A model generated the notes under the pieces. It was not told the DNA's origin. It made no database searches and saw only the letters and a program-made list of their open reading frames with translations. DNA of 51,758 bases. Origin: Nitrospinota bacterium. GTDB lineage: Bacteria > Nitrospinota > Nitrospinia > CAJXCL01. A program made the translations under genes and the position numbers. The stretch covers positions 1 to 51,758 of the forward strand of contig DASCNB010000011.1 in assembly GCA_036011265.1 (NCBI GenBank). The letters are read 5' to 3'. Below are positions 13,112 to 47,985 of the stretch, one piece after another. Within the stretch, counting starts at the first letter, position 1, and each line of letters starts with the position of its first letter.

Positions 13112-13311
13112 TAATTAACAAATGTACTGCAATCTCTCTTTTCTGATGCATTGCCTTGAGACGCTAACAAAGTTTAAATGTCCATAGATTCCCGATCAAG
13201 TTAGAAATGGCAACTTTATGCCTGAAATGGTAACTCTCTATTTCTTGTCATCCCGTATGCTTTTTATCATTCTCTCAAAAGCAGCAGCCTAACTTGCTTT
13301 CAGTCAGATTT

Positions 13312-18119: not shown

Positions 18120-18136
18120 AAAAAACTATCCTTTTT

Positions 18137-29199: not shown

Positions 29200-29889
29200 T
29201 CATATCTTTTTACAAACCACTAAATGCCAGTGGTAATCATACCCAAAACAATCATCCTGGACAGAAGCAAAAGCAAAATCAGAAAAGTACTTAGAAAAAA
29301 CATCTTCTATTTCTTGTTTATTTTCAAACATTCTCATTATCGCTCCATTTCTGGCATTAAATGGATCGTTTCGAATAATTTGGTACCCCTTTTTCAATTC
29401 TTCACTGCCATGATAGATAAAGCATGTTTTTTTAGGAATGGAAAGAATAAGATGTCTACCTTTTTTGAGCACTCTGTTAAATTCTTTAATATGTTGCCCA
29501 AAGTTTGTACTTTCCTGCATGTAATAGCAGCTATTCCAAGACACAAGATAATCAAAAAAGTTATTCTCAAATGGAATGGAGTCATTCATACCAGCCCTAA
29601 CATCAATATTCTCAAGACCTAATTGGTTTAAATCTGATTTTACTTTTTTTGCAATTTCTTCTGTAATTTCTACTCCATAAACATCAAAACCGCATTTTTT
29701 TAGAAAAGGAAGGTTCTTACCTTTTCCGCAACCTAAATCTAAGACTTTTTGGTCCTTATACTGGGATTTATCAAAATCTAACAATGGATATTTTCCCTTA
29801 AAGATTCTAATCAAATATTCAGCCGGATAACTCATTTCGTTTGCAGAAAGATATATTTTTTCCCATGCTTTCTTTGCATCATAACTCAT
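29200..29889 (-). CDS. class I SAM-dependent methyltransferase
   Basis: 229 aa. VLDLGCGKGKNLPFLKKCGFDVYGVEIT. Confidence 0.75.
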   Translation of the reverse strand: MSYDAKKAWEKIYLSANEMSYPAEYLIRIFKGKYPLLDFDKSQYKDQKVLDLGCGKGKNLPFLKKCGFDVYGVEITEEIAKKVKSDLNQLGLENIDVRAGMNDSIPFENNFFDYLVSWNSCYYMQESTNFGQHIKEFNRVLKKGRHLILSIPKKTCFIYHGSEELKKGYQIIRNDPFNARNGAIMRMFENKQEIEDVFSKYFSDFAFASVQDDCFGYDYHWHLVVCKKI

Positions 29890-29905
29890 AGCAAACTCCT
29901 TAATT

Positions 29906-30673
29906 TTAATTGTTTATGCCTATTACTTCAATTATCTCCCCTGAAGGACCAATGGCAAAAAAAATGTTTAACAGCTTTTTGTTTAAATTAAATTTCTTGA
30001 CCATTTCAGTGACTTTAATACTTTCTTTTTCAAGAGATTCTTTTTCTTTTTCTGCAGAGTTAGTTATAAAGGCGAGACAATTAAATCCTTTTGAATCTAA
30101 ATAAAAGGGTCTATTTACATTTTTTTCTTTTTTTAAAATAATCTGGTATACATCATTAGTAAACATGGAATTAAACTGCAAAAAAGCAAATTTTTTTTCA
30201 ATGCTGATAGGTTTAAAATTAAAATATTCCCAAAAAAGAACTGACTCCTTAATATTTTCCGTTTTTATAATGATTTTATTAAACTTAAATGAGTGTCTCT
30301 CTGCAGTATTTTGAATGTAAACAGGCAAGTCGAAAGCTTTTAAAGTGGCTTTTTGCAATATTATGTTATTTATAATTTGCTCTCCTGTATGCACAAAGTA
30401 ATTCTCCGGCATATTATCAAATATCGGGCTAAGATATGATTCCGCAGGATCTATTGATCTGTGGTTCAGGAGTTCAATGCTAAAGTTGCTGGGGCAGGTA
30501 AGCAGAGCCACATCAAGGTCTTCAGTAAAATGCTTTAGCATCGGTTTTTTTGTGGCCAGATTCTGACAGCTTTTTTCTATAAAATGCTCTTTATACCCTA
30601 AAGATTTGAATATCTTACAATCTTCTTCAAAGTTCAGTGAGGAAAAAGCCACATGATCAATCTGAAAAATCAT
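29906..30673 (-). CDS. hypothetical protein, possibly a two-module VOC (glyoxalase/dioxygenase-like) fold
   Basis: 255 aa. N-terminal IDHVAFSSLNFEEDCKIFKSLGY resembles the first beta-alpha-beta unit of VOC proteins. Weak evidence. Confidence 0.3.
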   Translation of the reverse strand: MIFQIDHVAFSSLNFEEDCKIFKSLGYKEHFIEKSCQNLATKKPMLKHFTEDLDVALLTCPSNFSIELLNHRSIDPAESYLSPIFDNMPENYFVHTGEQIINNIILQKATLKAFDLPVYIQNTAERHSFKFNKIIIKTENIKESVLFWEYFNFKPISIEKKFAFLQFNSMFTNDVYQIILKKEKNVNRPFYLDSKGFNCLAFITNSAEKEKESLEKESIKVTEMVKKFNLNKKLLNIFFAIGPSGEIIEVIGINN

Positions 30674-30756
30674 TTTCTGTAACTACCAACTCCAAGTATA
30701 GTTTTAAATATTTTTTTAATTCCTCTTCTTAATATTCTGTAGTTTGATCCCTGATA

Positions 30757-31584
30757 TTAATCAGGATCGATTGTCCCTGCAATTAAGAAGTTTGGATCAT
30801 TTTTAAGTTCTTTTTTAATCAGCTCAAAGGTATCTTTAGCTGAGATACAAACTATCTGTCCTTTTCCTAAAACGGCTATTTGAGCCAAAGCCATTTCTCT
30901 GGCTTTTCTATCAAATTTCGGATAGTCAGGTCTATAAACCGGATTATCTTTATTATAAGCAAAATGGTAAAATATTCTTTGTTCCACCTTGTCACCCTTT
31001 ATTAGTTCACCATTAAATGGTTTATCGTACCTGTAATGTATTTTTAATTCCCTTTCCACATAATGAATGAACGTGGAAGCGGCGTCAAAATTAAAATTAC
31101 AAAATTTCCCATCAATTTTTATAAACCTGTCCCAAAACCCTTCCTTAGCATAAGGATTCTCAGGGGCATTTTTTGTAATATATTCGGCTTTACTCCCTAC
31201 GGCTGTGATTGAAAAGTTAGCATCTTCCGACCTTAAAGACTCAGGGTCCTTTCTCATCATTTCGGATAAGAAACCACAAATGCCCGGAGTTTTATCAATA
31301 TCAAATTTCTTATTCCAACAAAAGCTATAACTAAAGGTTGGTTGAATCCATGTTCCTTCATTCCCTATCACTTCAAAAACAGCCTCTTTAAATATCCTGT
31401 AATAATCATCTCCGCTTGTCGATTCTTCAAGTTTCCCAAAAGCACCCACATTACTATATGTAAAAATATGGTCTTTTTTTGAGATTCCAACTTCGAGAAG
31501 GGCCTGAATAATATTCTGCCTGTTATAGTTATAAGCTCCTTGTTTCATTTGTTTTTTTTTCAATAATTTCCGCCAATCCCTCAA
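30757..31584 (-). CDS. AAC(3)-family (Antibiotic_NAT-like) N-acyltransferase
   Basis: 275 aa. LLEVGISKKDHIFTYSNVGAFG, EGTWIQPTFSYSF, LRSEDANFSITAVGSKAEYI and ASTFIHYVE follow the order of AAC(3) family blocks. The start is probably the internal Met at 31548. Overlaps the ACP gene. Confidence 0.55.
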   Translation of the reverse strand: MRDWRKLLKKKQMKQGAYNYNRQNIIQALLEVGISKKDHIFTYSNVGAFGKLEESTSGDDYYRIFKEAVFEVIGNEGTWIQPTFSYSFCWNKKFDIDKTPGICGFLSEMMRKDPESLRSEDANFSITAVGSKAEYITKNAPENPYAKEGFWDRFIKIDGKFCNFNFDAASTFIHYVERELKIHYRYDKPFNGELIKGDKVEQRIFYHFAYNKDNPVYRPDYPKFDRKAREMALAQIAVLGKGQIVCISAKDTFELIKKELKNDPNFLIAGTIDPD

Positions 31585-31795
31585 TCGTCATAAATTTTCT
31601 ATCCTGGAATTCATCATTTTCAAAGGAAATATTATATGTTTCTTCTATAACACTTATAAAAGAAATAAATTGGATTGAATCAATCCAGGCTTCGTTAAAG
31701 TAATTAAGATAAAGATTATCTTTAATTGCCTTTTCTTCAATAGATGTGTTTTTTGCAAACCAATTAATCAAGTTATCTTTTATTTCCTTGCTCAT
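31529..31795 (-). CDS. acyl carrier protein-like #2
   Basis: 88 aa. AWIDSIQFISFISVIEETY (DS-motif serine followed by an amphipathic helix). Confidence 0.65.
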   Translation of the reverse strand: MSKEIKDNLINWFAKNTSIEEKAIKDNLYLNYFNEAWIDSIQFISFISVIEETYNISFENDEFQDRKFMTIEGLAEIIEKKTNETRSL

Positions 31796-31873
31796 TAAAT
31801 CCTCATAAAAATATATCTTTTGAACTAAAACATTTACTGCAACATCCTTTTTAAAATAACAACTAAATTAAAA

Positions 31874-33475
31874 CTACAGCTTTGCCAGTCTTTTCCACCT
31901 TTTTTCTGCTTCAAGCAGATCAATAACTGATGACCTGTTACAGGGGATACCATTTTCCTTTGCAAGATTTATAAACCTGATAGCCCTGTCCATAGCTTCT
32001 TCTCGAGAGGGCTGCAAATCTTTTAATTTATAATACCTGAATATAGATAAAGGCTCAAACTCAGGAGGAAACCTATCCTGCAAGCCTCCATTATTATCCA
32101 CGAATTCATCCCTGCCAATTTCACCCTCTCCATAGAAGTAGAATATTGCAAGATCAAGTTCGTAAATATTATTTTTCATTTTTTTTATTAAACTTAGTGT
32201 TTCCTGGAAATGTTCTTCAGTTTCACCGGGAAAGCCCACAATCCAATACGTTGTTGTTTTAATTCCTGATTTCCTAAGACATTCCAAGGAATTCATTTGC
32301 GCTCCCGGTGTTACTTTTTTATTCATCGCTTTAAGTATTTGCGCTGAACCGCTCTCCATTCCAAGTCGTATACGGGATAAACCTGCTTTTGCCCATAAAT
32401 CCGTAAACTCCTGCATCTGTGTATGCTTATCTACGCGCATATAACAATCCATTTCTATTTTTATTTTTTTACTCAGAAGTTTTTTTGCGAGACCATTTAA
32501 ACTATGATTCATTAGAGCATCGGTAAAAAAATATCCTTTCTTACCATATTTTTCCTCATGCGCTTCAATCTCTTTTATAATTCTTTCGACACTCATAGTT
32601 CGAAAGTTACCCCATACCATAGTCTCCGAACAAAAGGAACATTTATATGGACAACCTCTTGAAACGCCGATACCGAGGTTAAAATATTTTTTCAGATTCA
32701 GGTCAGAATAATCCAAAAAAGGAAGAGAATCCATTTTCAGTTGCCCAATGTTGAAATTTAAGGCTGAGATAATTTTGCCTCCAGAATGGGGTTTTTCTAT
32801 AATTTCTTTTAAAACGAGTTCACCCTCACCAAAGATTATTTTATCAACAAAGGAGCATTTGTCTGCTAACTTCTTTAGGTTTTCTGAATCCGAGCTGATC
32901 CCGTTATACGGACCTGGGCCACCTAAAACAGTTGTTACTTCCGGAAATTTATTTTTAATTTCTCTTAATAAAAACAGTGCGGTTCCTAAGGTACTGCTTA
33001 GCATTGAACATCCGACAAAATCTGGATTAACAGAAAGCAACTCTGGAACAATTTTTTTTACATTACTGAAATGTTTGTCTAATACTGCTTCAAGTTTTTC
33101 TATAGTTAGTGCGATTTTAACCTTAGAAACATCACGTAGCAAATACTGGAAATGATCCTTAAGCAATATCTCAATATAGTTTATATATCCTTCAGGATAA
33201 TCGTCTTTAAATACCTTTGCCTGGGAATGAAAACCTAACAATTCAGATCCAAGCCTTGGGAGGATACTTTTCTCTGGAACAACAGATTTTAACACTTCCA
33301 AATACTTCCCCTGTGTATTCCATAGCTCCTGTTCCTCATTGAGATTAACTACTGTAACCTGATGACCAAATTTTTCCAGAAAAGATTTCAAAGAGACTAT
33401 TCCAACGGAAGGAGCAATGATATCCCAAAAAGTAGGCATTATTAGCAACAATTTGCATTTTTTTTTATCACTCAT
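31874..33475 (-). CDS. B12-binding-domain radical SAM enzyme (class B) #3
   Basis: 533 aa. KLLLIMPTFWD...DFVGCSMLSS B12-like domain, then VSRGCPYKCSFCSE. Confidence 0.8.
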   Translation of the reverse strand: MSDKKKCKLLLIMPTFWDIIAPSVGIVSLKSFLEKFGHQVTVVNLNEEQELWNTQGKYLEVLKSVVPEKSILPRLGSELLGFHSQAKVFKDDYPEGYINYIEILLKDHFQYLLRDVSKVKIALTIEKLEAVLDKHFSNVKKIVPELLSVNPDFVGCSMLSSTLGTALFLLREIKNKFPEVTTVLGGPGPYNGISSDSENLKKLADKCSFVDKIIFGEGELVLKEIIEKPHSGGKIISALNFNIGQLKMDSLPFLDYSDLNLKKYFNLGIGVSRGCPYKCSFCSETMVWGNFRTMSVERIIKEIEAHEEKYGKKGYFFTDALMNHSLNGLAKKLLSKKIKIEMDCYMRVDKHTQMQEFTDLWAKAGLSRIRLGMESGSAQILKAMNKKVTPGAQMNSLECLRKSGIKTTTYWIVGFPGETEEHFQETLSLIKKMKNNIYELDLAIFYFYGEGEIGRDEFVDNNGGLQDRFPPEFEPLSIFRYYKLKDLQPSREEAMDRAIRFINLAKENGIPCNRSSVIDLLEAEKRWKRLAKL

Positions 33476-33580
33476 ATAGGCAGGATTTTTATTTGAGTTG
33501 TATCCATTGATTGCCAGAAAGGAAGAAATCGGGCACGCCCTTCTTGATTATTTTTCTTCAATCCGTTGCTCAAATCAATT

Positions 33581-35065
33581 TCAGTTTTTACTTGTTTCCA
33601 TAAATCTTCTTAAAGTCAGTTTATCAACTTTCTCGTTAATATTTTTAGGTAAATTATCGATTGGGACAAACTCATCAACATAATAGTCTCTTCCAAGTTT
33701 TTTTATGATTTCTTTATTTAAGTTCTTTTTTATGTCTTCAACAAATGTTTTATCTTCTAAAACAAAAAAGCAGACTGTCTTCTCTCCTAAAATCGAATCA
33801 TCCAATCCTAATATTACCTGGTCTTCAAAAACATTATTACTGGCTATAAATTTTTCAACCTTCTCGGGATTAATATTGACTCCTCCCCGAATAATGATAT
33901 CTTTTTTTCTTCCATTTATTGTTAAGAATCGATCCTCGTTCAAATAACCAATGTCGCCTGAACGATATTTCTCACCATAAAAATAATCTTCTGTTTTTTC
34001 ATTTAAATAACCTGAAAAACGCCAGGGAACATCTATTAAAAGCTCCTCTTCTTCTGTAAAGGATACCTTTACTCCGTCTAATAATTGCCCGACACTACCT
34101 TCTAACTTTTTCCCAGGGGAATTTGCTGAAACAAAAAGAAGCTCTGACAAACCATAAGTTTCAAATAAGGGAATATTATATTTTTCTTCAAAAAATTTTT
34201 TTGTCCTGACATTTAAAGGAGCTGTGGCAACACAACCTACAATACCGCGTTGCAAGGCATAATTTATTCCTTCCTTTCCTCTATCAACCTTCAACAGCAG
34301 AGATAGAATAGAGGGAATAAAGCAAAAGGTATTAACAGAATATTTGATTGGGAGTTCCCAGAACCTTAAAATACTCGATATATTAAATTGCTCCCCGATA
34401 ATCAGCCGTCCTCCACAAAGAAAAGGCAGGAATATAAGGTTAAGAATCCCTGCCATATATGCCATAGAAAGATTATGATAGAAAATATTTTTTGGCCCAA
34501 AATGAAATACCCTACTAAAGGCTAAAGCACTTTTTGCGAGGTTATTAAAAGAATGAAGAACTCCTTTTGGCTTTCCTACAGAACCTGAAGTCATAGCAAT
34601 CAGGAAAGTATTCTCGTAGTCAACTGAATTAAAAATATCTAAACTCTTTATAGATTCGTTTCTTTTTTCATATAGAGCTTTTTTTATTTCGGTTAAATCT
34701 AAATAATTATCAAATAATGGATTCTTAGGGCCAGAGCAAATAGTTTTCTTATAATTAATTAGTGATATAATATCTTTGATTTCATTTTCTCCTCTATTCT
34801 TATCGACCGGTACAATGACTAATCCAAGTAATAAGGAGGAAAAATAAAGAATAACTAGCTCAAGGGAGTTCGGTTCAAAAAAGATAACGGCATCTTTTTC
34901 TTTAAGCCCCGACTTTTCCAACTGGTCTCTGCCGTTCAAAATGCAATGAAAAAAATCAGAGTAACGCAATGTCCGGCCGTTAAAACCATCAACAACAAAT
35001 ACCTCGTGCCAGTTTTTTTTTAAAAGAGATTTTATGTGTCCAGCAATATCAGCTTTTTGTTCCAT
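33581..35065 (-). CDS. AMP-dependent synthetase/ligase (adenylate-forming; candidate acyl-ACP ligase)
   Basis: 494 aa. MTSGSVGKPKGV (A3), YGLSE, YRSGDIGY, GRKKDIIIRGG. Confidence 0.8.
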   Translation of the reverse strand: MEQKADIAGHIKSLLKKNWHEVFVVDGFNGRTLRYSDFFHCILNGRDQLEKSGLKEKDAVIFFEPNSLELVILYFSSLLLGLVIVPVDKNRGENEIKDIISLINYKKTICSGPKNPLFDNYLDLTEIKKALYEKRNESIKSLDIFNSVDYENTFLIAMTSGSVGKPKGVLHSFNNLAKSALAFSRVFHFGPKNIFYHNLSMAYMAGILNLIFLPFLCGGRLIIGEQFNISSILRFWELPIKYSVNTFCFIPSILSLLLKVDRGKEGINYALQRGIVGCVATAPLNVRTKKFFEEKYNIPLFETYGLSELLFVSANSPGKKLEGSVGQLLDGVKVSFTEEEELLIDVPWRFSGYLNEKTEDYFYGEKYRSGDIGYLNEDRFLTINGRKKDIIIRGGVNINPEKVEKFIASNNVFEDQVILGLDDSILGEKTVCFFVLEDKTFVEDIKKNLNKEIIKKLGRDYYVDEFVPIDNLPKNINEKVDKLTLRRFMETSKN

Positions 35066-36122
35066 CCTGCTCTTTTCCTATATACCTGCTGAAATTATAC
35101 TTGCCGAGATAAATATTTTCTTTGCCACTCATCTTTTGAGCAATACTTTCCAGAACATCCTCTTCCATATTCACCTTATTTACTTTAGTATATTCAATCA
35201 TTAATACTGCCGGATCAACGCTGTATTTTGCAGCAAACTTTTGAATATGATGCATAAAGCTTGAATGAAAATCAGCAAAACCAGATACGATATCCAATGG
35301 AACTTTTCCGGTAACATTTATGAGTGGTTGAATATATTTTTGTCCGATTTCCAGTACCTTTAAAAAATCAATGTTAGTTGCATACCCCTTTTTAAGAAAA
35401 GTTGCTAACAATATTTCAGTAGAAGCGTTACCAGAGCTTCTACCCAGCCCCTGTAATGATGAATCAATATAATCAATACCTGCATCAATCGCTACTAAGC
35501 TATTGGCGATTGCGAGACCTAAATTATCATGGCCATGAAAACCAAGGGGAATATCAGATATCTCTCTAATTACTTTATAGTACTCCTTAATTTGTTCAGG
35601 AAACATCCCTCCAGCTGAATCTACTATGTAGATAATATCAGCGCCATATTGTTCAGAAAGTTTCACTTTTTTGGCAAATTCTTCTGGAGAAAACGAGTAA
35701 GACTTCATAAAGTTGCTTGACACAAGCATTCCATAATCCTTGGCTTTCTTTATAAACGGTTCAGAAGAGGCAACTTTATCAATATCTGTTCCGATCCTGA
35801 GAAAGCCTATATTATGCTTTGCTGCAATATCAATATTTTTTAGTTCGGCAATGCCGGGAATACAGAACATACCATATTTAGCTTTTTTCAGGACGCTTTC
35901 CGCGGCTATCATATATTCTTCATCGGTGTGAGCGGCAACTCCGTAACCCCGGTTACTCGCGTTCATTCCCACACCATGTCCTATTTCAATATACTCAAAT
36001 CCCGCGCTTTCAAGCTCCCTACAAATAATTGAGGTATCGGTCATGGAGAAAGAAAAGTTAACCGCATAACTACCGTCCCTGAGTGTTGTATCAATAATTA
36101 TTACTTTTTCCATTTCAATCAC
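35049..36122 (-). CDS. DmpG/RhiG-type class II aldolase (HMGL-like TIM barrel; 4-hydroxy-2-oxoacid aldolase family)
   Basis: 357 aa. IIDTTLRDGSYAV, FHGHDNLGLAIANSLVAIDAG, GLGRSSGNASTE, and a C-terminal communication-domain-like FADFHSSFMHHIQKFAAKY. Collinear with DmpG as I recall it. Confidence 0.7.
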   Translation of the reverse strand: MIEMEKVIIIDTTLRDGSYAVNFSFSMTDTSIICRELESAGFEYIEIGHGVGMNASNRGYGVAAHTDEEYMIAAESVLKKAKYGMFCIPGIAELKNIDIAAKHNIGFLRIGTDIDKVASSEPFIKKAKDYGMLVSSNFMKSYSFSPEEFAKKVKLSEQYGADIIYIVDSAGGMFPEQIKEYYKVIREISDIPLGFHGHDNLGLAIANSLVAIDAGIDYIDSSLQGLGRSSGNASTEILLATFLKKGYATNIDFLKVLEIGQKYIQPLINVTGKVPLDIVSGFADFHSSFMHHIQKFAAKYSVDPAVLMIEYTKVNKVNMEEDVLESIAQKMSGKENIYLGKYNFSRYIGKEQDGTKS

Positions 36123-36146
36123 TTCCCAACAAACCGGTTCAAGTTA

Positions 36147-36806
36147 TTATTTATAAACACATACTCTCACCGGAGCGCCATCTCCGTCTTTTATTTTTAG
36201 TGGCATTACAATAATGTTCCAACCTTTATAGTCTTCAACTTTATCAAGATTAGCCAGATATTCAACTAATACAATCCCGTTTTCCAGAAAGATCTTGTGT
36301 ACAGGGGAATCACTATTTCCCGTAAGTTTATTGCGGCTGTCATCCGGTGACGGGCTGTCTAAACCAATCAACTCAATTCCTTTTGAAACTAAATATTTTG
36401 CTGCAGAATTAGTAAAATAGGGATAACCTTTATAAAACTTTCTATTACCCCAGTATTCACCCCAACCAAATTTAAAGACCATTTTTTTTGATATTTGAAC
36501 TTGTGCCAACATTTTTTCGGTTATCGCTTCGTCTTCATTAAGATTGCTAAAATCAATTATAGTTACCTTCCCAATTAGTTTTTCTAAAGGGATTTGATCA
36601 ATGGTCGGCCTATCTTTGATAAAATGACGTGGAGCATCAGCGTGAGTCCCTGTATGAGTTCCCAAGCAAACCTCTCTTGTTTCACGACCTTCTATGTTAA
36701 GCCTGCCTAATTGCCTGATGGAAACTTCCGGATGCCAGGGGGCTGCAAAAGTAGTCATGCCTTCCTCAATGGGGTAAGTTAAATCTATAAAGACAGTATT
36801 ATTCAT
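36147..36806 (-). CDS. cyclase-family protein (kynurenine formamidase-like metallohydrolase)
   Basis: 219 aa. GTHTGTHADAPRHF (HxGTHxDxPxH). Confidence 0.75.
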   Translation of the reverse strand: MNNTVFIDLTYPIEEGMTTFAAPWHPEVSIRQLGRLNIEGRETREVCLGTHTGTHADAPRHFIKDRPTIDQIPLEKLIGKVTIIDFSNLNEDEAITEKMLAQVQISKKMVFKFGWGEYWGNRKFYKGYPYFTNSAAKYLVSKGIELIGLDSPSPDDSRNKLTGNSDSPVHKIFLENGIVLVEYLANLDKVEDYKGWNIIVMPLKIKDGDGAPVRVCVYK

Positions 36807-36815
36807 TTTTTTATA

Positions 36816-38105
36816 CTATTTATCTTCATTAACAAGAATATCTTCATCAAGAAGTTTTTTTACAATAGGCAAGCAGTCAATTAAATAAAGGCCAATATTA
36901 TCACATACCTCTAACAAGTCGTGCTTACCATCCAAGTAGTTTAAAAGTAATGATAATGTGTGTGAATATACCCTATTTTTTTTACTTATGTGAGGCATTA
37001 AACCTCTTTTACCGAGTTGAGGTTCACAAGGAAATGGTACACGGTAATAATAATTATTTTCAAGAACTACTAAACACTTGAGAATCGCATTATAACCTCC
37101 CTCCAAACCCGAAGGGGTGATAAGTGATAAGTCATCTAAGGATGTATGATATTCTGGGTATGTTCCAGGCCGTGATCTCATGACTGATACCACCGGTAAC
37201 CTAACATTGGGACTGCAGTATTGCTGCTCATCACTCCCGCCCTTGTCCCAAAAATTGTATTCTTTATAATCTCGCGCAATATTTTTTAACACATGTTTTG
37301 CAACCCGGTCTGTCAGAGTGTCACCCCAGGGTGACGGAGTAAAAGAATAATCACGATCATCTCCTACACATGATACAACAAATCCCGCAACCGTATTTTT
37401 TTTCATGGCATCCAGGTTCCGGCTTAAGTAAACAATAGAACCAATTGTTTCAGGAACAAACACTATCCGGTAAGTATAACGGCGCTCATCTAAGTTACTC
37501 AACCACCTTGCAAGTGCAACTGTTACCACAGGCCCGGAAAGTTCATTATTGGCCATAGATGGGTGACAGATATAAGTTGAAAGTAATATTTCTTTCTTTT
37601 CATTCCCCGGTAAAATAATATCTCCGTATGTCAGGCTCCCTGGTTTTAAGCTGCTGTCTATAACAGCATGATATTTTCCCGGCTTTAATCTTAAGCGTTG
37701 CTCATGCGTTAAGCAAAACCCCCACCAGCGTTTGTAATATGAAGCAACATAAGGTATTGCATTAGGTTGGTCTGGTAAAGAATATAGACGTTTGTCCAGT
37801 TCTTCCAGAGGAAGCCAGATATCCACTGGTTCTGAATAGTTCACGACATGCAAATTGTGCTGCTTAAAATCAATTACTCTATTCCCATTTTCGTCCTCAA
37901 CATAAGCATTGCGGATATTCCACTCATCAGGAACGATCCAATCATATGCCTTAGTTCCAGAGGGAACTTCATGTATCGTAAGGTCGGGCAACAAATCTTT
38001 AATATAGCGTAATGTCTTTCTGTTCCCTTCCCCTGTAAGGCTACGACATATATGGAATAAATCACGCACCCAAGCATATGTTTCATGTCCAATTGAATCT
38101 TTCAT
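36816..38105 (-). CDS. aminopeptidase-like-domain protein (DUF4910/DUF2172 type) of polysaccharide loci
   Basis: 429 aa. N-terminal RDLFHICRSLTGEGNRKTL and CHPSMANNELSGPVV resemble the COG4310-type family. Confidence 0.55.
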   Translation of the reverse strand: MKDSIGHETYAWVRDLFHICRSLTGEGNRKTLRYIKDLLPDLTIHEVPSGTKAYDWIVPDEWNIRNAYVEDENGNRVIDFKQHNLHVVNYSEPVDIWLPLEELDKRLYSLPDQPNAIPYVASYYKRWWGFCLTHEQRLRLKPGKYHAVIDSSLKPGSLTYGDIILPGNEKKEILLSTYICHPSMANNELSGPVVTVALARWLSNLDERRYTYRIVFVPETIGSIVYLSRNLDAMKKNTVAGFVVSCVGDDRDYSFTPSPWGDTLTDRVAKHVLKNIARDYKEYNFWDKGGSDEQQYCSPNVRLPVVSVMRSRPGTYPEYHTSLDDLSLITPSGLEGGYNAILKCLVVLENNYYYRVPFPCEPQLGKRGLMPHISKKNRVYSHTLSLLLNYLDGKHDLLEVCDNIGLYLIDCLPIVKKLLDEDILVNEDK

Positions 38106-38152: not shown

Positions 38153-40189
38153 TCAGCTGGTTTTTTTGGCTAATTGAGAAATGACATTTACAACTCTTTC
38201 AGCTGACGAAAGATCATCATCAGGCAAATTTCTTTTCAAAAAATTTCTCTGGATTTTTAATCTTTCTTCTTTGAAGCTTTTATCGTTACGTAATCTGTCT
38301 AAAGCTGGCGTTAGTTCAAGTGGAGATTTAATCTCAATTGCCACCTTTTCCGCACAAAGAGGTAAAAAAGATGGTTTACCGGGTTTATTATAAACGATCA
38401 CAGGTGTATCGTAATAAATAGCTTCAATACCAACGTTTGAATGTGTCACAACAACTACATCCGATGCAGTTAAAAGATCATGAAGATGATTTCTATAAAT
38501 CGAAATACTATTAATGCCATCCCTAGATTTAAAATTACTTACCAACCACTCAGTACTATCATCAAACATTTTAAGCTTAAAGACAGCCCTAGAATTATTC
38601 CTTTTAACAAATTGTTTGAGAAATAATTCATAGAAGTTTGATAATTCAAAGGTAGATATCGTACCATTTATTATAAATTTGTCATAAAATGGTCCAGCTA
38701 TGGCACGAAGTGCAAAAAGCACAATTTCTTCATTTGCTGAAAATCCCAGCCGTTTGCGAGCATTGTAATAAGATTTCTGAGTTTTTATTTTTAACTTTCC
38801 AAATCTTGGTATACCTGTTAATAATAATTTATCTTGACTAATACCGCGGCAAACTTGCATAAGTTCTTGATACCTAATACCAGAAATTTCATGAGTTGGA
38901 TAAAACGGGAAGTGTTTGATATTGCATGGAAGAGGCGATAAAATTTTACCCCCCACTTTAAATCCCGGCTCAACACTATGAGGAATATGCAATACCGAAA
39001 TTCCATTACGTTTTGCTATTTGTGTAAGAATAATGCGTTTGGCTCCCCATCTTTCACAAATCAAAACGATATTAATATTTTTTTTTTTAATAGTATATTC
39101 TGAAATTTGAAAAAATTTAATTAACTCAGGAATTCTTATTTCAATGATTTCTTTCAAGTATCCATCCATAAAATTTAAAAGTGGTATATCCAGAAACATC
39201 CACCTTGGGTGTTTCCTTTGGAAATTTATCTCTTTTTTAAATCTTAATTTCAAATCAGAAACAAATTCTGAAGTTTTATTATTTTCAAAAAACGAGCCAA
39301 TACCTTTTGTTGAAGCACGAATAATACGAAAATTAAAATAGCAATTATTTTCATCGTCAAAATAATAAAGAAGGCTTTTTTCTTTTCTCAAAAAACTTTC
39401 TATTAAATTATTCCCAAAATAAGTTATATCACTCGCTGATAATGTAAGAGCCCTGACCGAATCATTTTTATTTTTATCTATTAAAAATAATCTTTTTGCT
39501 TGATCTACTGTTCCGACCACAAGTTTTTTGATAAAACGGTTTAGGGCAACATGGCTATAATAGATTAATTTTCCTTCCCAAATATTTTGCTTTTCGAAAC
39601 GCCACTGTTTTAATATTTTCTCAAGCATAAGAAATGATCTGTGAGCTTTTGGTTCACTAATGTATACATCATAATTTTTATAGTTTTTCAGAAATTGAAA
39701 TATTTTTTTATGCAGCAATAAACTGCTTTCTTTATACTTGAGTTCAGGGAGTGAAGGATCATTCACTAAAAGAATTTTATTAGGATTTTCATGTTTCAAA
39801 ATATTAGATACATCAAGAATAGCCTTGTTGAGATAACTAATATAGTAAAAGACCTCCTTCTTTAGAGATGTCCCCAAGGAAATGCCATCAAACTTTGTAA
39901 AGTCATTACCTTCATGATCCTCAAACCACTTTCCGGCTAATTCCACAGCAGAGCACTCAGCTTCTTCATATTCTTTCTGATTTCGATAATTATCTATAGA
40001 CTTGCTTTCGATTCCATTTTTTTTTAAAGCTTTTAAAGTCAATCCGTCACCCGCGATACAAATTGTATCTTTATCAATACAAGATTTAAAAGTTTTCAGA
40101 AATATTTCAACTTCATCAAAATTATCGATAAATGCTAAAGTTTTAACCATTTTTTTGTTACGACTGCGTGTAAGCTTTTGAATATGCAA
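38153..40189 (-). CDS. large GT-B-like protein, possibly Capsule_synth (KpsC/KpsS)-related transferase
   Basis: 678 aa (TTG in the track; ATG alternative at 40150). C-terminal SDVVVVTHSNVGIEAIYYDTPVIVY resembles the ...NStvGlEAl..gkPV... block of capsule-synthesis transferases. The rest is unrecognised. Confidence 0.3.
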   Translation of the reverse strand: MHIQKLTRSRNKKMVKTLAFIDNFDEVEIFLKTFKSCIDKDTICIAGDGLTLKALKKNGIESKSIDNYRNQKEYEEAECSAVELAGKWFEDHEGNDFTKFDGISLGTSLKKEVFYYISYLNKAILDVSNILKHENPNKILLVNDPSLPELKYKESSLLLHKKIFQFLKNYKNYDVYISEPKAHRSFLMLEKILKQWRFEKQNIWEGKLIYYSHVALNRFIKKLVVGTVDQAKRLFLIDKNKNDSVRALTLSASDITYFGNNLIESFLRKEKSLLYYFDDENNCYFNFRIIRASTKGIGSFFENNKTSEFVSDLKLRFKKEINFQRKHPRWMFLDIPLLNFMDGYLKEIIEIRIPELIKFFQISEYTIKKKNINIVLICERWGAKRIILTQIAKRNGISVLHIPHSVEPGFKVGGKILSPLPCNIKHFPFYPTHEISGIRYQELMQVCRGISQDKLLLTGIPRFGKLKIKTQKSYYNARKRLGFSANEEIVLFALRAIAGPFYDKFIINGTISTFELSNFYELFLKQFVKRNNSRAVFKLKMFDDSTEWLVSNFKSRDGINSISIYRNHLHDLLTASDVVVVTHSNVGIEAIYYDTPVIVYNKPGKPSFLPLCAEKVAIEIKSPLELTPALDRLRNDKSFKEERLKIQRNFLKRNLPDDDLSSAERVVNVISQLAKKTS

Positions 40190-40290: not shown

Positions 40291-40675
40291 TTAATGCTTT
40301 CGGAGAAAATCATGCTCTTTTCCCTGTTGATCCCAGTGGTTAATGCGTAACATAGCAGATTGATCAGGCTCTTTTGTTTCACGCATTCTGGTTCCAATGA
40401 TTGCTGGAAGCGCTTTATTTTCCCATTGCTCCGGGGGAACAGACAATAGACGTTTTGAGATGCTGTGGTCCCATTTCTTTGAGATAATTCTAAAAATCTT
40501 TAGAGATATATTGGATTCCATTATCGGAGATGATTTCAGGTTTTACTCCTGGATATTTCTCTAATGCTCTCTCTATGGTAATCTCCATGTCATACTCTGT
40601 CATATTTGTTCTTAACTCATGGTGAAGCATATAACGGGAATAAGCATCTATATGCTCCTGCATTATCATAACTTT
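40291..40675 (-). mobile_element. decayed DDE (rve/integrase-core) transposase remnant
   Basis: My translation is IDAYSRYMLHHELRTNMTEYDMEITIERALEKYPGVKPEIISDNGIQYISKDF, followed by frameshifts and stops, with continuation pieces (KEMGPQHLKTSIV, SNGK-like) in other frames. The N-terminal half is missing and I saw no inverted repeats. Confidence 0.6.
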
Positions 40676-40698: not shown

Positions 40699-41277
40699 TT
40701 ATAATGGGACGTTTTTTTTTATATGTAAAAAATCGTTTTTCAAAAACCCTACAGTATGCTTAAATAATACGTTACAACACTCACTAATTGAGAGAGTCTC
40801 AGTATCCAAAATTAGTTCTGGTTTATCAGAAAGTTCATAAGGTTCTGTAACTCCAACAAAAGTGTTGAGTTCACCAGCAAACGCCTTTGCATAGAGTCCT
40901 TTAAAATCTCTTTTTTTACAAACTTCAATCGAACATTTTAAATAAACCTCAATGAATGGGGAGAGCGCTTTTCTGGCAATCTCTCTCATCAACCTTTTGT
41001 GAGATATAGTCGAAACGATAGCCACATTTCCCCTTTGATTACAGTCATTGGCAATTCGTATTACATTCTCAAGAACGGCAAATCGTTCTTCAACTGAACT
41101 CCCATAAATCCGATCAAGTTTTTTTCGCAAAACTTCACCATCCAGAAATTCGGCATTATGATAACCTTCCTGCATTAATTTGTCATAAAGCAATTGACCC
41201 AAAGTTGTTTTTCCGGAAGCCGTGACCCCTGTAATCCAAACAGTTCCTTCAACTAGTTTATTTTTCTTAAGTTGCAT
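40699..41277 (-). CDS. cysC: adenylyl-sulfate (APS) kinase
   Basis: 192 aa. P-loop WITGVTASGKTTLGQLL, FLDGEVLRK, VSTISHKRLMRE, FIEVYLKCSIEVCKKRDFKGLYAKAFAGEL..FVGVTEPYE. Collinear with CysC blocks. 25-nt overlap with the Fe-ADH gene. Confidence 0.8.
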   Translation of the reverse strand: MQLKKNKLVEGTVWITGVTASGKTTLGQLLYDKLMQEGYHNAEFLDGEVLRKKLDRIYGSSVEERFAVLENVIRIANDCNQRGNVAIVSTISHKRLMREIARKALSPFIEVYLKCSIEVCKKRDFKGLYAKAFAGELNTFVGVTEPYELSDKPELILDTETLSISECCNVLFKHTVGFLKNDFLHIKKNVPL

Positions 41278-42353
41278 AATACAATATCTTTATCAAATAA
41301 AAAATTTTTTGATCTTTCATTTTTTATTAAGTACTCGTTGATTTGTTTTAATTCATCTGTATCAAGGTAGTGGTCAATATTCATTGAGATATTTACTTCC
41401 CTATATAAATCCCTAAGCTTATTACCAGAAAGTTCACCGAAAATATTTATTATTGCAGAGTCAACATTTTCATCCATTCCGACAACCAGGTCTATTATAT
41501 TTGGTAAAAAAAAGCTAGAAGCTATGCCATGCGGTATTCCTTTGTTAGCCGTTAAATAGTAAGAAATAGCATGTGCTATAGCCGTTTGTGTATTAGAAAA
41601 TGCGAGTCCGGCATTAAGTGCCGCAAACATCATCCTTTCTCTATATTCAATATTACCTAAATCATTTATTAGTTTTGGCAAAATATGAACAATTTCTTTC
41701 GCAGCGACTATGGCATAATTGGTTGAAATAGGATTTGCATTTCTGTTCCATATTGATTCCAAACTATGAGAAAGTGCATCAAGTGCAGTTTGAACAGTTA
41801 GATCTCTTTGCAAAGACAATGTAAGTTCAGGATCACAAATGCTGACTTCTGACCACAAATCTTCTAAATGCAACGAATATTTTTTCTTTTCATCTGAATC
41901 CCAAACAGTTGCCCAACATGTCACTTCACTCCCTGTACCAGATGTCGTCGGAATAGCTATAAAAGGGATAAGACGGTATCCTTCTCTCTCATTTTTTTTC
42001 CTTATAATGGAATCAATAAAAGTAAAATTTTTATCTTTATTATAAACTGATATTACTTTGCTGGTATCAATAACACTTCCACCACCAAGAGCAATTATGA
42101 CATCAAATTTCTTTTGCCAGACAGATTCATAAATAGACTTCAGATTCTTGAAAGTTGGATTTGGATTAACACTATCAATAATTACTTCTATTTTATCGGT
42201 TAAAGACTGTATTTTCTGAATTAAACCTCTTCTCGAAAAACTCTTTGAAGTAATTAAGAGAGCTTTTCTATTCCCTACAAAGTCATCCAATTTATCTAAT
42301 TTGCCTGTACCGAATTCTATTCTTACTGGATTATAATATTTAAAGCATTTCAT
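41253..42353 (-). CDS. group III iron-containing alcohol dehydrogenase (candidate phosphonoacetaldehyde reductase, FomC/PhpC-like)
   Basis: 366 aa. ALGGGSVIDTSK, PTTSGTGSEVT, and metal-site histidines in ALSHSLES and AHAISY..PHG. The function is proposed from context. Confidence 0.7.
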   Translation of the reverse strand: MKCFKYYNPVRIEFGTGKLDKLDDFVGNRKALLITSKSFSRRGLIQKIQSLTDKIEVIIDSVNPNPTFKNLKSIYESVWQKKFDVIIALGGGSVIDTSKVISVYNKDKNFTFIDSIIRKKNEREGYRLIPFIAIPTTSGTGSEVTCWATVWDSDEKKKYSLHLEDLWSEVSICDPELTLSLQRDLTVQTALDALSHSLESIWNRNANPISTNYAIVAAKEIVHILPKLINDLGNIEYRERMMFAALNAGLAFSNTQTAIAHAISYYLTANKGIPHGIASSFFLPNIIDLVVGMDENVDSAIINIFGELSGNKLRDLYREVNISMNIDHYLDTDELKQINEYLIKNERSKNFLFDKDIVLCNLRKIN

Positions 42354-43120
42354 TTGAACATTTCTTTTGCTTTTTCAAGGTCTTCCATAAAATCTACTTC
42401 AATCCATGGAAAGTTATTTGTAGAACTGCAATATATTTTATTTCCTTCTTCTGCCATTTTGGTAAACGCGAAAGAATCATAATTAGTTAAACCATCTTCA
42501 AATAAAACTTTTTCTACATATTTAAATAGATATTCAGGCTGCTTCACATATGCAATACCTGTCCACTCACCCCCAGCCTTGTCGAGAGAAATTTTTTTAT
42601 CTGATTTAATTAGATAGTTTTCTTCAGTAACTATAACCTTCATCGCTTCTTTATCTGTACTGCCAAAATCTACAACTAACTCTATATTATTATTGTTATC
42701 TTTAAACTGTTGAAGTGTTGAGGATATTATATTTTCATGATAGATAATGTCGCTATGTAAGTACACGAAAGGGCTATTACCAGCAAAAGATTTTGCTAAC
42801 CAAAAAGAGGCGAGGTTGTTTGAAATTTTATAAAACGGGTTGGTTATATAAAATATGTCTTCCTCAAACGACTCAATGATCATATCTTTTTTATAACCAA
42901 CAACGATAGCTATGTCATTAATACCATTTTTTCTCAAAATATCAATGGATCTTTTTAATATTTCTTTACCAGAGACTTTCAGCAAAGCTTTCGGTTTTTC
43001 TGAGGTAATTGGATAAAGTCTGCTGGATATCCCGGCAGCAACGATGATAGCTTTGTCAATCAAATTTTTTTCCGAGAAAAAAGGTGATAAGTATTGGTCG
43101 GTTGAGATTAAGCTCGGCAA
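42350..43120 (-). CDS. stand-alone nucleotidyltransferase (LicC/PntC-like cytidylyltransferase candidate)
   Basis: 256 aa with a TTG start in the track. AIIVAAGISSRLYPITSEKPKALLKV signature. 4-nt overlap with the Fe-ADH gene. Confidence 0.7.
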   Translation of the reverse strand: MPSLISTDQYLSPFFSEKNLIDKAIIVAAGISSRLYPITSEKPKALLKVSGKEILKRSIDILRKNGINDIAIVVGYKKDMIIESFEEDIFYITNPFYKISNNLASFWLAKSFAGNSPFVYLHSDIIYHENIISSTLQQFKDNNNNIELVVDFGSTDKEAMKVIVTEENYLIKSDKKISLDKAGGEWTGIAYVKQPEYLFKYVEKVLFEDGLTNYDSFAFTKMAEEGNKIYCSSTNNFPWIEVDFMEDLEKAKEMFK

Positions 43121-43208
43121 GATAGCATTTAAATATTTGCGTTTTTACGTTATACTACTTTTAAACTTTTCCCCGGCCTTTTATATTTGGTTATGAATAT
43201 TTAGATGA

Positions 43209-44738
43209 TCACGTCTGTTTCTGAAGAAACTTAGCGTCAATGTTATCACCATAGTGATTTTTAAACTTTTCGAAATCTCGATGTTTAAGAAGTTCATTCA
43301 GATAGAGAGTTTTTTCATCTACCCAATGCTCAAATTCATGAGGGTTATTAAATCCAGCAACTTTTATTAGCGAATTCCGATATAAAATATCCCTCTTTCC
43401 CCGCGCATCATCCCACCAAAGGTTTTCTTTCAAAACCTGATGGTAAATTGGCGTTCCAGGAAGTGGAGATAGAATGGCAAGGGAATAACTATCAGCACCA
43501 ACTTGTGCCGCAAAGTCAATCGTTTTTTCCATTTCTTCTCGTGTCTCCCCCGGATATCCAACAATCCAGAAAGTATGGACAGATAATCCTGCTTTTTGGG
43601 CATTTTCCACTGATGGTTGAATTTCCTCTAATTTGAGTTTTTTGTGAATAATATCATCCAGTACTCTCTGTACTCCACTTTCGCAACCGAATGTAATCTG
43701 GTAACAACCAGCATCTGCCATCCTTTTGTATAATTCATATTGTCTGTCTCCTTTTTGGTGATAATTTACCTTTACACCGTTTGGTGTGCACCAGGTAATC
43801 CCAAGATGTTCAATGAGGTTACAAAGTTCAAAAAGATTTTTTCTGTTGGCAGTGAGCGTATCATCTTCGAATTGCACTTCATCAATATCATATTTTTTAA
43901 TTCCTTCTTTAATCTCATCATAGATGTTTTGTGGATCTCTCCATCTTACCTTTTGCCCCCACATTAAAGGAGTTGTGCAAAAACTGCATATTTCAGGGCA
44001 CCCCCTTGATGCCATAACATTAAGCACCCGTCTTGATTTGGATTTACTTGAATGAAACAATCCAATCTTGAAATACCCTTCCAAATTCATGAGATCTCTT
44101 GAAGGAAAAGGAAGTTTGTTGATATCTTCTAAAGGGGAGGGTGCTGGATTAATATAGATTAGATTATTTTTAAAGTAAATTAATCCAGGAATATCTTTGG
44201 GATCTTGCTCATTAATAAGTCTTTTTACAAGCTCAGCAAATTGATACTCAACCTCTCCTCTCATAGCAAAATCAATGTTCCTATCCTGCAGATCAACCAT
44301 TTCTCCTGGAACTCTCACATCAGGATGTTTACAGGCAAATTGATAATCTCTCACTGCATTGCTGATATGATTTCCTCCAAGAATTACTTTAACTTTGGGA
44401 TTTACAGTTTTTGCAATCTTTGCAATGGTATAAGCATGATCCATCATGTTAGAGAAGAGAACTGAAACACCAATAATGTCTGGATTTAAGCTGGCAATAT
44501 AAGATGCTATATTTTCATTAGATTCACCAATAAGTACTATTTTATCATCAAGATTTTTCTCATTGCGATATCCCTCTAAAGCACAATCTCTTATGTAAAC
44601 TGCATGACCAGATTTTCTGAGTACCGATCCTAAATATCCAACACCTAACCCTGGTTGAATACGGTTAATACCGCTTTTCATCCCTTTTATGTTGGGTATC
44701 ATTAAAAGAACTCGTGCTTGCTTTGCCATGTTTGGCAC
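43209..44738 (-). CDS. B12-binding-domain radical SAM enzyme (class B) #4, Fom3-like by context
   Basis: 509 aa. VLLMIPN...LGVGYLGSVLRKSGH...DIIGVSVLFS B12-like domain, then ASRGCPEICSFCTT and FGCESG. Located between the Ppd and NTase/ADH genes. Confidence 0.75.
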   Translation of the reverse strand: MPNMAKQARVLLMIPNIKGMKSGINRIQPGLGVGYLGSVLRKSGHAVYIRDCALEGYRNEKNLDDKIVLIGESNENIASYIASLNPDIIGVSVLFSNMMDHAYTIAKIAKTVNPKVKVILGGNHISNAVRDYQFACKHPDVRVPGEMVDLQDRNIDFAMRGEVEYQFAELVKRLINEQDPKDIPGLIYFKNNLIYINPAPSPLEDINKLPFPSRDLMNLEGYFKIGLFHSSKSKSRRVLNVMASRGCPEICSFCTTPLMWGQKVRWRDPQNIYDEIKEGIKKYDIDEVQFEDDTLTANRKNLFELCNLIEHLGITWCTPNGVKVNYHQKGDRQYELYKRMADAGCYQITFGCESGVQRVLDDIIHKKLKLEEIQPSVENAQKAGLSVHTFWIVGYPGETREEMEKTIDFAAQVGADSYSLAILSPLPGTPIYHQVLKENLWWDDARGKRDILYRNSLIKVAGFNNPHEFEHWVDEKTLYLNELLKHRDFEKFKNHYGDNIDAKFLQKQT

Positions 44739-45016
44739 CTATTTATGCATTATTTCCACAAAATTTTAAAAAAATATTGCTATAAAAATTGAAATTGAAC
44801 ACGTTGCTTCTTCTTTGGGAATAGAAGGCTTCATTCCGCAAAAATCATTTTTTATCACATGCCCTTAAAGAAACGCGATGATACTCTTATACAGTGAAAA
44901 AATCGACCTGTGCCTTACCTTTTCTTACAAACTATTTCAAATTGCCTTCTCTGACAATGTAATACGTTGTTTGACGTACTTTCCCTTTAATATTCTCATC
45001 GAATAAATATAAAATT

Positions 45017-46132: not shown

Positions 46133-46329
46133 TGTATGCTACCCTTTGACAGTGTTTAGCGGATTTCCCGTGGCTTGCTACTGAGTTTCAGCGTGAGTTC
46201 AGCCCAACGCTTGATAAGCAAATTCAAAAAGAAATTGTACTCTACTCTGAAGCTCTCCAACAGCTTACCTCTCGGAGTTTCAATATTCTTTTCTGTAGAA
46301 AAGCTACTAATGCTCGTAATATAAAAAAA

Positions 46330-47964: not shown

Positions 47965-47985
47965 AAATATATTCCTAATCCGGTA

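Follow-up and report, generated by a model that had tools for sequence, protein, structure and literature searches.

Nine consecutive open reading frames (ORFs) lie on the minus strand at 29200-38105 of a 51,758-nucleotide stretch of DNA from a Nitrospinota bacterium (GenBank contig DASCNB010000011.1); this whole stretch is the window of our analysis. In reading order they encode a DUF4910/DUF2172/HTH_47 protein, a cyclase-family protein, a DmpG/BphI-type aldolase, an AMP-ligase, a class B radical S-adenosylmethionine (SAM) enzyme with a B12-binding domain, an acyl carrier protein (ACP), an AAC(3)-fold transferase, a VOC-fold protein and a class I methyltransferase (Table 1). An earlier note, made by a model from the letters of the sequence, had described this series as a carrier-protein acyl module, and all nine ORFs were found at the positions it gave, with its last member, the methyltransferase gene, falling outside the start at 29906 that it assigned to the module. 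Eight of the nine genes turn out to be a co-conserved cassette, found in bacteria and archaea. We propose that it exchanges the N-acyl group of an amino sugar in a surface glycan.

Gene layout of the module

The aldolase and AMP-ligase genes overlap by 17 nt and the ACP and transferase genes by 20 nt, both overlaps having been reported before; the other intergenic gaps are 9-105 nt. Also present as previously quoted are the motifs HTGTHADAPRH in the cyclase-family protein and DTTLRDG in the aldolase. The gene calls recur unchanged in public assemblies of this marine organism. A terminator-like site on the minus strand (28912-28895), itself weak, follows the methyltransferase gene and is a weak hint that an operon may end there. 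Predicted sites were not above chance in number: 63 looked like promoters (47±7 in shuffled sequence) and 9 like terminators (6.4±2.6).

Co-conservation of eight genes

Whether homologous gene sets are scattered or kept together was examined by synteny. A profile of the transferase subfamily was scanned against one genome per GTDB species, which gave 41 loci; with loci from homologue look-ups added and duplicates removed, the sample was 42 non-redundant loci. These were analysed by tblastn with the window proteins and by independent ORF clustering.

Homologues of the transferase were found in 41 of the 42 loci, of the ACP in 36, the cyclase-family protein in 34, the ligase in 31, DUF4910 in 30, the aldolase in 27 and the methyltransferase in 26, and ORF clustering placed the VOC family in 33. 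Aldolase, ligase, cyclase and transferase genes occur together in 26 loci, 24 of which have them in one order on one strand. Among the 27 loci that span at least 17 kb, 21 have these four genes and 20 have DUF4910 as well. All eight genes fit inside 6.7-8.2 kb in 12 loci. The canonical order is aldolase, ligase, VOC, methyltransferase, cyclase, ACP, transferase, DUF4910, and seven loci have a class I/II aminotransferase gene between those for the methyltransferase and the cyclase. The window holds the same eight genes in permuted order together with the B12-radical SAM gene.

Hosts of the cassette belong to more than 12 bacterial phyla and to the archaea. They include Ignavibacteriales, Bacteroidota, Planctomycetota, Vampirovibrionales, the candidate phyla radiation, Babeliales/Dependentiae, alpha- and gammaproteobacteria, Fusibacter, Kosmotogaceae, Elusimicrobia, Deferribacterales and Anaerolineae, and among archaea Methanobacterium ferruginis, Micrarchaeota and Aenigmatarchaeota. 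Cultured hosts in this sample, each a candidate for work on the complete cassette, are M. ferruginis NBRC 105197, Fusibacter sp. 3D3, Roseibium sp. AS2 and Roseobacter sp. SK209-2-6. Genes within 10 kb of the cassette encode NeuB (17 loci), CMP-sugar synthetases (16), 4,6-dehydratase (13), DegT aminotransferase (12) and GNAT acetyltransferase (7). The identities of the genes, their co-conservation and their genomic context are direct observations, as are the fusions and the fold and catalytic residues of the transferase described next.

The proposed transfer core

The transferase matches Antibiotic_NAT (PF02522) at 78.4 bits against a cut-off of 25. Its AlphaFold2 (AF2) model has a predicted local distance difference test score (pLDDT) of 93.2, and Foldseek (E 1e-20) aligns it with AAC(3)-IIIb, -IIIa, -Xa and -IVa, BA2930 and YokD at template-modelling (TM) scores of 0.74-0.81, those for AAC(3)-IIIb, -IIIa, -Xa and BA2930 being 0.76-0.81, and with FrbF at 0.74; identity to the solved AAC(3)-fold relatives and FrbF is just 14-21%. 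A phmmer search of the PDB with the transferase alone found nothing, and a family profile was needed for a match. The earlier note had named loss of the family's acyl-CoA/aminoglycoside-binding residues as a concern; the catalytic residues are retained: His162 and Glu165 of the TxxHxxE motif are invariant in 30 subfamily members and align with catalytic His168 and Glu171 of meta-AAC0038, of which the H168A mutant has been crystallised. The scores lie far below the NCBIfam cut-offs for resistance enzymes (AAC_3, 41.5 against 270 bits; AAC_3_IV, 36.5 against 420; AAC_3_II, 19.8 against 480). The subfamily keeps 50-60% identity across very distant hosts, and an exhaustive profile search at E<=1e-30 found at least 645 clusters at 50% identity. 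In the subfamily His31 (HSN motif) is nearly invariant and corresponds to His29 of meta-AAC0038, for which the structure of an H29A mutant is available; the window protein and two further members have Tyr instead.

The ACP scores 21.0 bits for PP-binding (Pfam cut-off 20.8) and has a candidate phosphopantetheine site at Ser40 in a WIDS motif. Its best NCBIfam matches, all under cut-off, are the stand-alone carrier proteins AmcB, AsbD and DltC. In nearly all loci the transferase gene overlaps or adjoins that of the ACP, and three proteins (P0033, P0119 and P0129) are transferases with an N-terminally fused ACP domain, in which a W(I/M)DS motif is kept. In locus L007 a 4'-phosphopantetheinyl transferase (PPTase, ACPS) gene stands directly upstream of the aldolase gene.

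Das et al. (2014) solved the structure of the DUF4910 protein CA_C2195 (3k9t) and found a single Zn site formed by His189, Asp195 and His324 in a conserved cleft, without the catalytic residues of M28 peptidases, where Ser191 and Pro225 replace Asp and Glu (PMC4000134). The window protein matches 3k9t at 6e-102 over all three domains (residues 5-406). His189, Ser191 and His324 are conserved (CHPSM..., EYHTS), so that the two Zn-binding histidines are kept; the Asp195 position reads 'NNE', with the carboxylate shifted by one residue, as it is in 16 other cassette homologues.

Long proteins of 450-812 aa make up about 45 of the 150 best subfamily representatives (about 30%; P0146-P0279). Among ten that were scanned, eight are transferase-DUF4910 fusions and one is a MaoC-dehydratase-transferase fusion; one of the eight (P0279) adds HTH_47 and a PPTase domain. 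DUF4910 had been labelled 'aminopeptidase-like' in the earlier note. Judged by these proteins it is not a peripheral gene and is better regarded as an integral partner of the transferase, being fused to it in many genomes.

Two loci, L021 (Babeliales, 5263-12093) and L030 (Kaiserbacteria, 5531-13276), keep ACP, transferase and DUF4910 and have neither aldolase nor cyclase; in their place stand a class I/II aminotransferase, an M29-like protein and a different AMP-ligase. Taken with the fusions, this variant suggests that ACP, transferase and DUF4910 are a constant transfer core, and that aldolase, ligase, VOC protein, methyltransferase and cyclase are one of several interchangeable acyl-supply sets. 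A further, divergent Antibiotic_NAT gene is encoded on the other strand of L030.

The probable acyl-building enzymes

The aldolase passes the cut-off of the 4-hydroxy-2-oxovalerate aldolase subfamily NF006049 (303.7 against 229 bits) and falls narrowly under that of the equivalog TIGR03217 (281.9 against 286). It has the barrel (PF00682) and communication domain (PF07836) of this type, and its PDB matches include 8ih7 (1e-55) and 1nvm (3e-52). Arg17 and the metal ligands Asp18, His200 and His202 are kept, as DTTLRDG and GFHGHDN align with 1nvm in all cassette aldolases. The catalytic and channel pair of DmpG, His21 and Tyr291, has changed places in the cassette: 28 of 28 aldolases have the reciprocal pair (Tyr16 and His283 in the window protein), against His/Tyr in 4 of 4 solved DmpG-type enzymes, and the pocket segment reads MFCIPGIA instead of LLLPGIG. 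Cassette aldolases are 41-72% identical to that of the window. No acylating aldehyde dehydrogenase domain of the DmpF/BphJ type was found among window ORFs of at least 150 aa. The aldolase is instead translationally coupled to the AMP-ligase through overlapping genes, here and in L007. We rejected a catabolic, meta-cleavage role on the grounds that the DmpF partner is missing and that the gene lies within a glycan locus. The direction of the aldolase reaction is presumed to be synthesis.

In the canonical order the ligase gene directly follows that of the aldolase. For the ligase a PDB search found no relative at E<=1e-25, and NCBIfam gave generic matches. The HxGTHxDxPxH motif of the cyclase-family protein is kept across cassette homologues, and its nearest solved structures are kynurenine formamidase and isatin hydrolase, both metal-dependent amide hydrolases. 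The VOC protein could be placed through its family: a profile of 30 members searched against the PDB gave, at E<=0.1, matches to VOC proteins and nothing else (best 1.5e-4, with glyoxalase I and methylmalonyl-CoA epimerase at the top), which supports the 'VOC-like' label of the earlier note. His7, Glu67, Asp193 and Glu249 are invariant in this family; the single-sequence AF2 model of the window protein reached a pLDDT of 33. Homologues of the methyltransferase are 32-60% identical to it and lie beside the VOC gene.

The B12-radical SAM enzyme, previously counted as part of the module, does not belong to the conserved set. It has the cluster motif CPYKCSFC (CxxxCxxC), it matches PF04055 and PF02310, and its best NCBIfam matches, all under cut-off, are C- and P-methyltransferase families. 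A homologue stands near the transferase in one other locus of the 42 (L042), and the gene is therefore a local accessory of the window's cassette; most simply, it would be an extra C-methylase.

The surrounding glycan locus

The entire window, with a GC content of about 34%, forms a single large locus for a surface glycan in an uncultured marine bacterium, and identical contigs are present in Tara and other ocean metagenomes. It contains genes for glycosyltransferases, a 4,6-dehydratase, a DegT aminotransferase, a hexapeptide acetyltransferase, an Epimerase_2 protein, a PIG-L deacetylase and seven radical SAM enzymes. Past the high-coordinate end follow a CMP-sugar synthetase (CTP_transf_3), a carbamoyltransferase, NeuB and a Wzx flippase, NeuB and the synthetase lying 5-8 kb past the window end; past the low-coordinate end the housekeeping genes start. 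With NeuB, a CMP-sugar synthetase, the dehydratase and DegT among its genes, the locus therefore holds the parts of a pathway to a nonulosonic acid of the legionaminic or pseudaminic type.

The gene that heads the acyl module, a CDP-glycerol glycerophosphotransferase-like gene, lies 47 nt upstream of the DUF4910 gene; no homologue of its protein was found beside the cassette in other loci. Farther upstream is a remnant of an rve (integrase-core) gene of an insertion sequence (IS), truncated and frameshifted and called in public assemblies as fragments of 57 to 59 aa and 76 aa. It sits between this gene and the APS-kinase-like gene of a phosphonate sub-cluster, which also encodes phosphoenolpyruvate (PEP) mutase, phosphonopyruvate decarboxylase (Ppd), an iron-dependent alcohol dehydrogenase (Fe-ADH), a nucleotidyltransferase, two B12-radical SAM enzymes and a 325-aa protein. 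The sub-cluster probably makes a decoration of the methylated hydroxyethylphosphonate type.

Table 1. Positions in the window of the module genes, followed by those of other features
Feature	Position	Strand	Evidence or remark
DUF4910/DUF2172/HTH_47 protein (CA_C2195/Cj1295 family)	36816-38105	-	Pfam 8e-101, 1e-36, 6e-16
Cyclase-family (PF04199) protein, metal-dependent amidohydrolase	36147-36806	-	Pfam Cyclase 5e-30
DmpG/BphI-type class II pyruvate aldolase	35049-36113	-	HMGL-like 1.5e-40, DmpG_comm 8e-8; mechanical ORF to 36122
AMP-ligase	33581-35065	-	Pfam AMP-binding 5e-38, AMP-binding_C 2e-5
Class B B12-binding radical SAM enzyme	31874-33475	-	Radical_SAM 3e-27, B12-binding 1e-8
ACP	31529-31795	-	PP-binding (PF00550) 4e-4
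AAC(3)-fold transferase	30757-31548	-	Antibiotic_NAT (PF02522) 8e-22; called start, mechanical ORF to 31584
VOC-fold protein, 255 aa	29906-30673	-	No Pfam or NCBIfam match; family profile
Class I SAM-dependent methyltransferase, last gene of module	29200-29889	-	Methyltransf_25, Methyltransf_11, 4e-15
678-aa glycerophosphotransferase-like protein	38153-40189	-	C-terminal third only: Glyphos_transf and 'surface carbohydrate biosynthesis' model
rve (IS) remnant	~40291-40640	-	Truncated and frameshifted
Phosphonate sub-cluster	40699-51298	-	
Fe-ADH	41253-42353	-	
Ppd	45017-46132	-	
PEP mutase	46330-47964	-	
325-aa protein	47986-48963	-	No Pfam match
Hexapeptide acetyltransferase	19481-20032		
PIG-L deacetylase	14858-15640		
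Radical SAM genes	7276-9816, 13312-14829, 20010-21086, 31874-33475, 43209-44738, 49295-51298		

Seven radical SAM genes in a 52-kb locus are unusually dense; five have B12-binding domains and two have SPASM domains, and another B12-radical SAM gene lies directly outside the window. On the minus strand at 14858-18889 a 751-aa TPR and FkbH_N-like protein, an SDR protein and the PIG-L family de-N-acetylase are grouped, and an FkbH_N protein is also encoded directly downstream of the transferase gene in L006 (12583-14298). FkbH-type enzymes put glyceryl units on carrier proteins, and by analogy with the glyceroyl group of Campylobacter this set could be a second acyl-supply route. At 22820-24791 two overlapping plus-strand ORFs (413 and 246 aa, no Pfam match) break the otherwise minus-strand locus; they are kept in all public copies of the contig.

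Proposed mechanism and its alternatives

We propose, and consider somewhat more probable than all other explanations together, that the cassette carries out N-acyl exchange on an amino sugar of a surface glycan: an acid would be built and loaded on the ACP, then transferred by the AAC(3)-fold enzyme to an amine freed by DUF4910. In the aldolase step a small aldehyde would be condensed with pyruvate or a different 2-oxo acid, giving a 4-hydroxy-2-oxo acid. This may then be tailored, through methylation by the methyltransferase (and here also by the B12-radical SAM methylase), through isomerisation or epimerisation by the VOC enzyme, through opening or closing of a lactone or lactam, or hydrolysis of an amide, by the cyclase-family amidohydrolase and, in some genomes, through transamination. 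The ligase would adenylate the acid and load it on the ACP. The DUF4910 protein, a presumed single-zinc, M28-like enzyme, would take off the sugar's N-acetyl group, which comes from UDP-GlcNAc, or otherwise partner the transferase; such a deacetylation would be needed at the nitrogen derived from UDP-GlcNAc, which is N5 of a nonulosonic acid. Finally, the freed amine would be re-acylated by the AAC(3)-fold enzyme from acyl-S-ACP, whose phosphopantetheine arm would stand in for CoA. We infer each of these steps, together with the order of tailoring, the aldehyde, the final acyl group, the nitrogen acylated and the deacetylase role of DUF4910, from the observations set out above.

The acceptor is most likely, as the genomic neighbours suggest, a nonulosonic acid of the legionaminic or pseudaminic type or its nucleotide-sugar precursor. 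The acyl group would be an aldol-derived, methylated hydroxy or oxo acid, and our confidence in any particular structure is much lower than in the overall scheme. The core of the earlier proposal, an aldol acid carried by an ACP to an aminosugar nitrogen, agrees with the co-conservation, with the ACP-transferase fusions and with the AAC(3) fold and its His/Glu pair. The parts that we would change are the inclusion of the B12-radical SAM enzyme and the breadth of the acceptor, which remains a sugar amine and is more specifically likely to be a nonulosonic acid or its precursor.

Several points weigh against this proposal. We infer the chemistry of every protein in the cassette. An acyl-ACP donor is suggested by adjacency and fusion, while all characterised Antibiotic_NAT enzymes use acetyl-CoA, and the ACP itself barely exceeds the PP-binding cut-off. 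The deacetylase role of DUF4910 is a published hypothesis, and the general-base Glu of M28 is absent (PMC4000134); the cyclase-family protein, itself an amidohydrolase, could be the deacylase instead, and the PIG-L deacetylase of the window could also free an amine. Because the loci were collected through the transferase subfamily, all co-occurrence frequencies are conditional on that anchor. Of the 27 long loci, just 14 showed NeuB or a CMP-synthetase within 10 kb, so that some genomes may use other amino sugars as acceptors.

The earlier note had also offered a RhiG-like extension of the phosphonate. In such a route the aldolase would condense phosphonoacetaldehyde with pyruvate or oxaloacetate to a C5 phosphonate acid that is then attached to the glycan. 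RhiG is a DmpG-family aldolase; PEP mutase and Ppd, about 9 kb upstream, and Fe-ADH share the strand and the locus with the module, and FrbF, whose Antibiotic_NAT fold resembles the transferase model, acts in phosphonate biosynthesis. Homologues of PEP mutase, Ppd or Fe-ADH were, however, found within 10 kb in none of the 42 cassette loci. Moreover, the identity among cassette aldolases and their common Tyr/His swap suggest one substrate class across the clade, the rve remnant and the glycerophosphotransferase-like gene separate the phosphonate set from the module, and the adjacent Fe-ADH is expected to reduce phosphonoacetaldehyde to 2-hydroxyethylphosphonate. We regard this route as highly improbable. 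Scarcely better are the chances of a diffusible product, for example a lactone signal or an N-acyl amine, with the position of the cassette in glycan loci being incidental. Aldolase, ligase, ACP and cyclase do resemble a small natural-product pathway, and 13 of the 27 long loci have neither NeuB nor a CMP-synthetase within 10 kb, but here and in many loci the cassette is set among sugar-nucleotide, glycosyltransferase and flippase genes, ORF clustering of the loci found no exporter or regulator conserved alongside it, and the homologous DUF4910 gene of C. jejuni alters a flagellin glycan (PMC3068675).

A plain acetyl-CoA N-acetyltransferase, equivalent to PseH or LegH, is a less remote alternative that we still consider unlikely; ligase and ACP would then serve a separate reaction, for example Dlt-like esterification of a polymer or supply of an O-acyl group. 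All solved relatives of the transferase bind CoA or acetyl-CoA, its catalytic His and Glu are unchanged, and DltC is among the best matches of the ACP. Such a division of labour fits poorly with the fusion of ACP to transferase in at least three lineages, with the transferase-DUF4910-PPTase fusion and with the overlapping or abutting ACP and transferase genes; many loci, the window included, already own a GNAT or hexapeptide acetyltransferase for standard acetylation.

Comparison with known systems

Hitchen et al. (2010) found that Cj1295 is required for the Pse5(2,3-di-O-methylglyceroyl)7Ac of Campylobacter jejuni flagellin, and proposed that it strips the N5 acetyl so that another acyl can follow (PMC3068675). 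Cj1295 is a DUF2172 protein (PMC6321876), and the adjoining Cj1296/7 is an N-acetyltransferase gene (PMC3068675), so the likeness to a Campylobacter flagellin-glycan island that the earlier note named was essentially correct. The Cj1295 data are the sole genetic evidence for a homologue of any module gene. Like the cassette, the Cj1295-Cj1304 locus has a DUF2172/DUF4910 protein beside an N-acetyltransferase gene, and an N5 acetyl is replaced; unlike the cassette, its acyl group is a methylated glyceroyl, and it is without genes for a DmpG-type aldolase, a cyclase-family protein or a VOC protein, a comparison made by description. ACPs and methyltransferases are also encoded nearby.

In C. acetobutylicum the CA_C2195 neighbourhood resembles the module in linking a three-domain DUF4910 protein with a transferase and an ACP. 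Das et al. (2014) associated DUF4910 with an 'aminosugar N-acetyltransferase', ACP, NeuB, nucleotidyltransferase and methyltransferases, and proposed a non-peptidase role in sugar modification (PMC4000134). Aldolase, ligase, VOC and cyclase-family neighbours appear there in the supplementary lists, where Nitrosopumilus maritimus SCM1 and Grimontia hollisae are named too, and not in the main text, and the eight-gene cassette, the ACP-transferase fusion and the PPTase fusion were not defined (PMC4000134). Both C. acetobutylicum and C. jejuni have the ACP/transferase/DUF4910 trio without the aldolase (PMC4000134, PMC3068675). Papers of 2026 still call these genes uncharacterised, and we found no paper linking a DmpG-type aldolase to nonulosonic acids.

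The cassette transferase shares with AAC(3)-II to -X and FrbF the fold, the His and Glu of TxxHxxE and N-acylation of an amine, on a sugar-like or a phosphonate substrate. It differs from the AAC(3) resistance enzymes in that these take acetyl-CoA as donor (acyl-ACP would be the donor here) and are not fused to ACP or DUF4910. The cassette aldolase has the HMGL-like barrel, the communication domain and the Asp/His/His metal ligands of the catabolic enzymes DmpG and BphI, which in contrast work with a DmpF-type partner (here an AMP-ligase), have His21/Tyr291 unswapped and carry the LLLPGIG pocket. A further parallel is the tetronate module RfbK-O of Vibrio cholerae O1 (ACP, ligase-like protein, Fe-ADH, acyl-reductase-like protein and transferase), which N-acylates perosamine. 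Its logic is that of the cassette, a small hydroxy acid passing from a dedicated ACP encoded in an O-antigen locus to a sugar amine, although the building and transfer enzymes belong to other families and neither a DUF4910 nor an AAC(3)-fold protein takes part.

That a carrier-protein-borne acyl group can be put on a sugar amine is already known, and parts of the association of DUF4910, transferase and ACP had been noticed in 2010-2014. Four features appear to be undescribed: a cassette of eight genes that includes a DmpG-type aldolase, its bacterial and archaeal breadth, the fusion of AAC(3)-fold subfamily members to ACP, DUF4910 and PPTase domains, and the active-site swap of the aldolase clade.

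Significance

The charge and antigenicity of flagella, S-layers, capsules and O-antigens, and how phages and immune systems recognise them, are set by the N-acyl groups of nonulosonic acids and other amino sugars. For groups beyond acetyl, acetimidoyl and a few others, the biosynthesis is largely obscure. A wider reading, which we hold tentatively and at rather less than even chances, is that ACP, transferase and DUF4910 make up a widespread acyl-swap machine, with DUF4910 as a new single-zinc sugar de-N-acetylase, these transferases as the first ACP-fed Antibiotic_NAT enzymes and an undescribed aldol-derived N-acyl group on nonulosonic acids as the product. That group may be one that forms a lactone or lactam. 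Strains with N-acyl groups of the 5-oxoprolyl type include Vibrio anguillarum V-123, V. cholerae O5 and Plesiomonas shigelloides O74. Methylated hydroxy-5-oxoprolyl N-acyl groups are known from glycans of Vibrio, Plesiomonas and Campylobacter coli (PMC10609480, bioRxiv 10.1101/050328), and one may speculate that the cassette might be the missing route to such orphan groups; we found in the literature no gene-level link between it and 5-oxoprolyl groups or the 403-Da pseudaminic acid derivative of Aeromonas hydrophila AH-1.

The cassette is a defined, portable eight-gene set for one N-acyl modification, and it provides testable roles for DUF4910 and the ACP-linked AAC(3)-fold transferases, families flagged in 2010 and 2014. 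The transferase subfamily is found in small-genome lineages (the candidate phyla radiation, DPANN archaea and Babeliales), which suggests that the decoration is worth its cost. If the assignments made here from sequence hold, genes in such loci annotated as 'aminoglycoside 3-N-acetyltransferase' or '4-hydroxy-2-oxovalerate aldolase' would be neither resistance nor catabolic genes.

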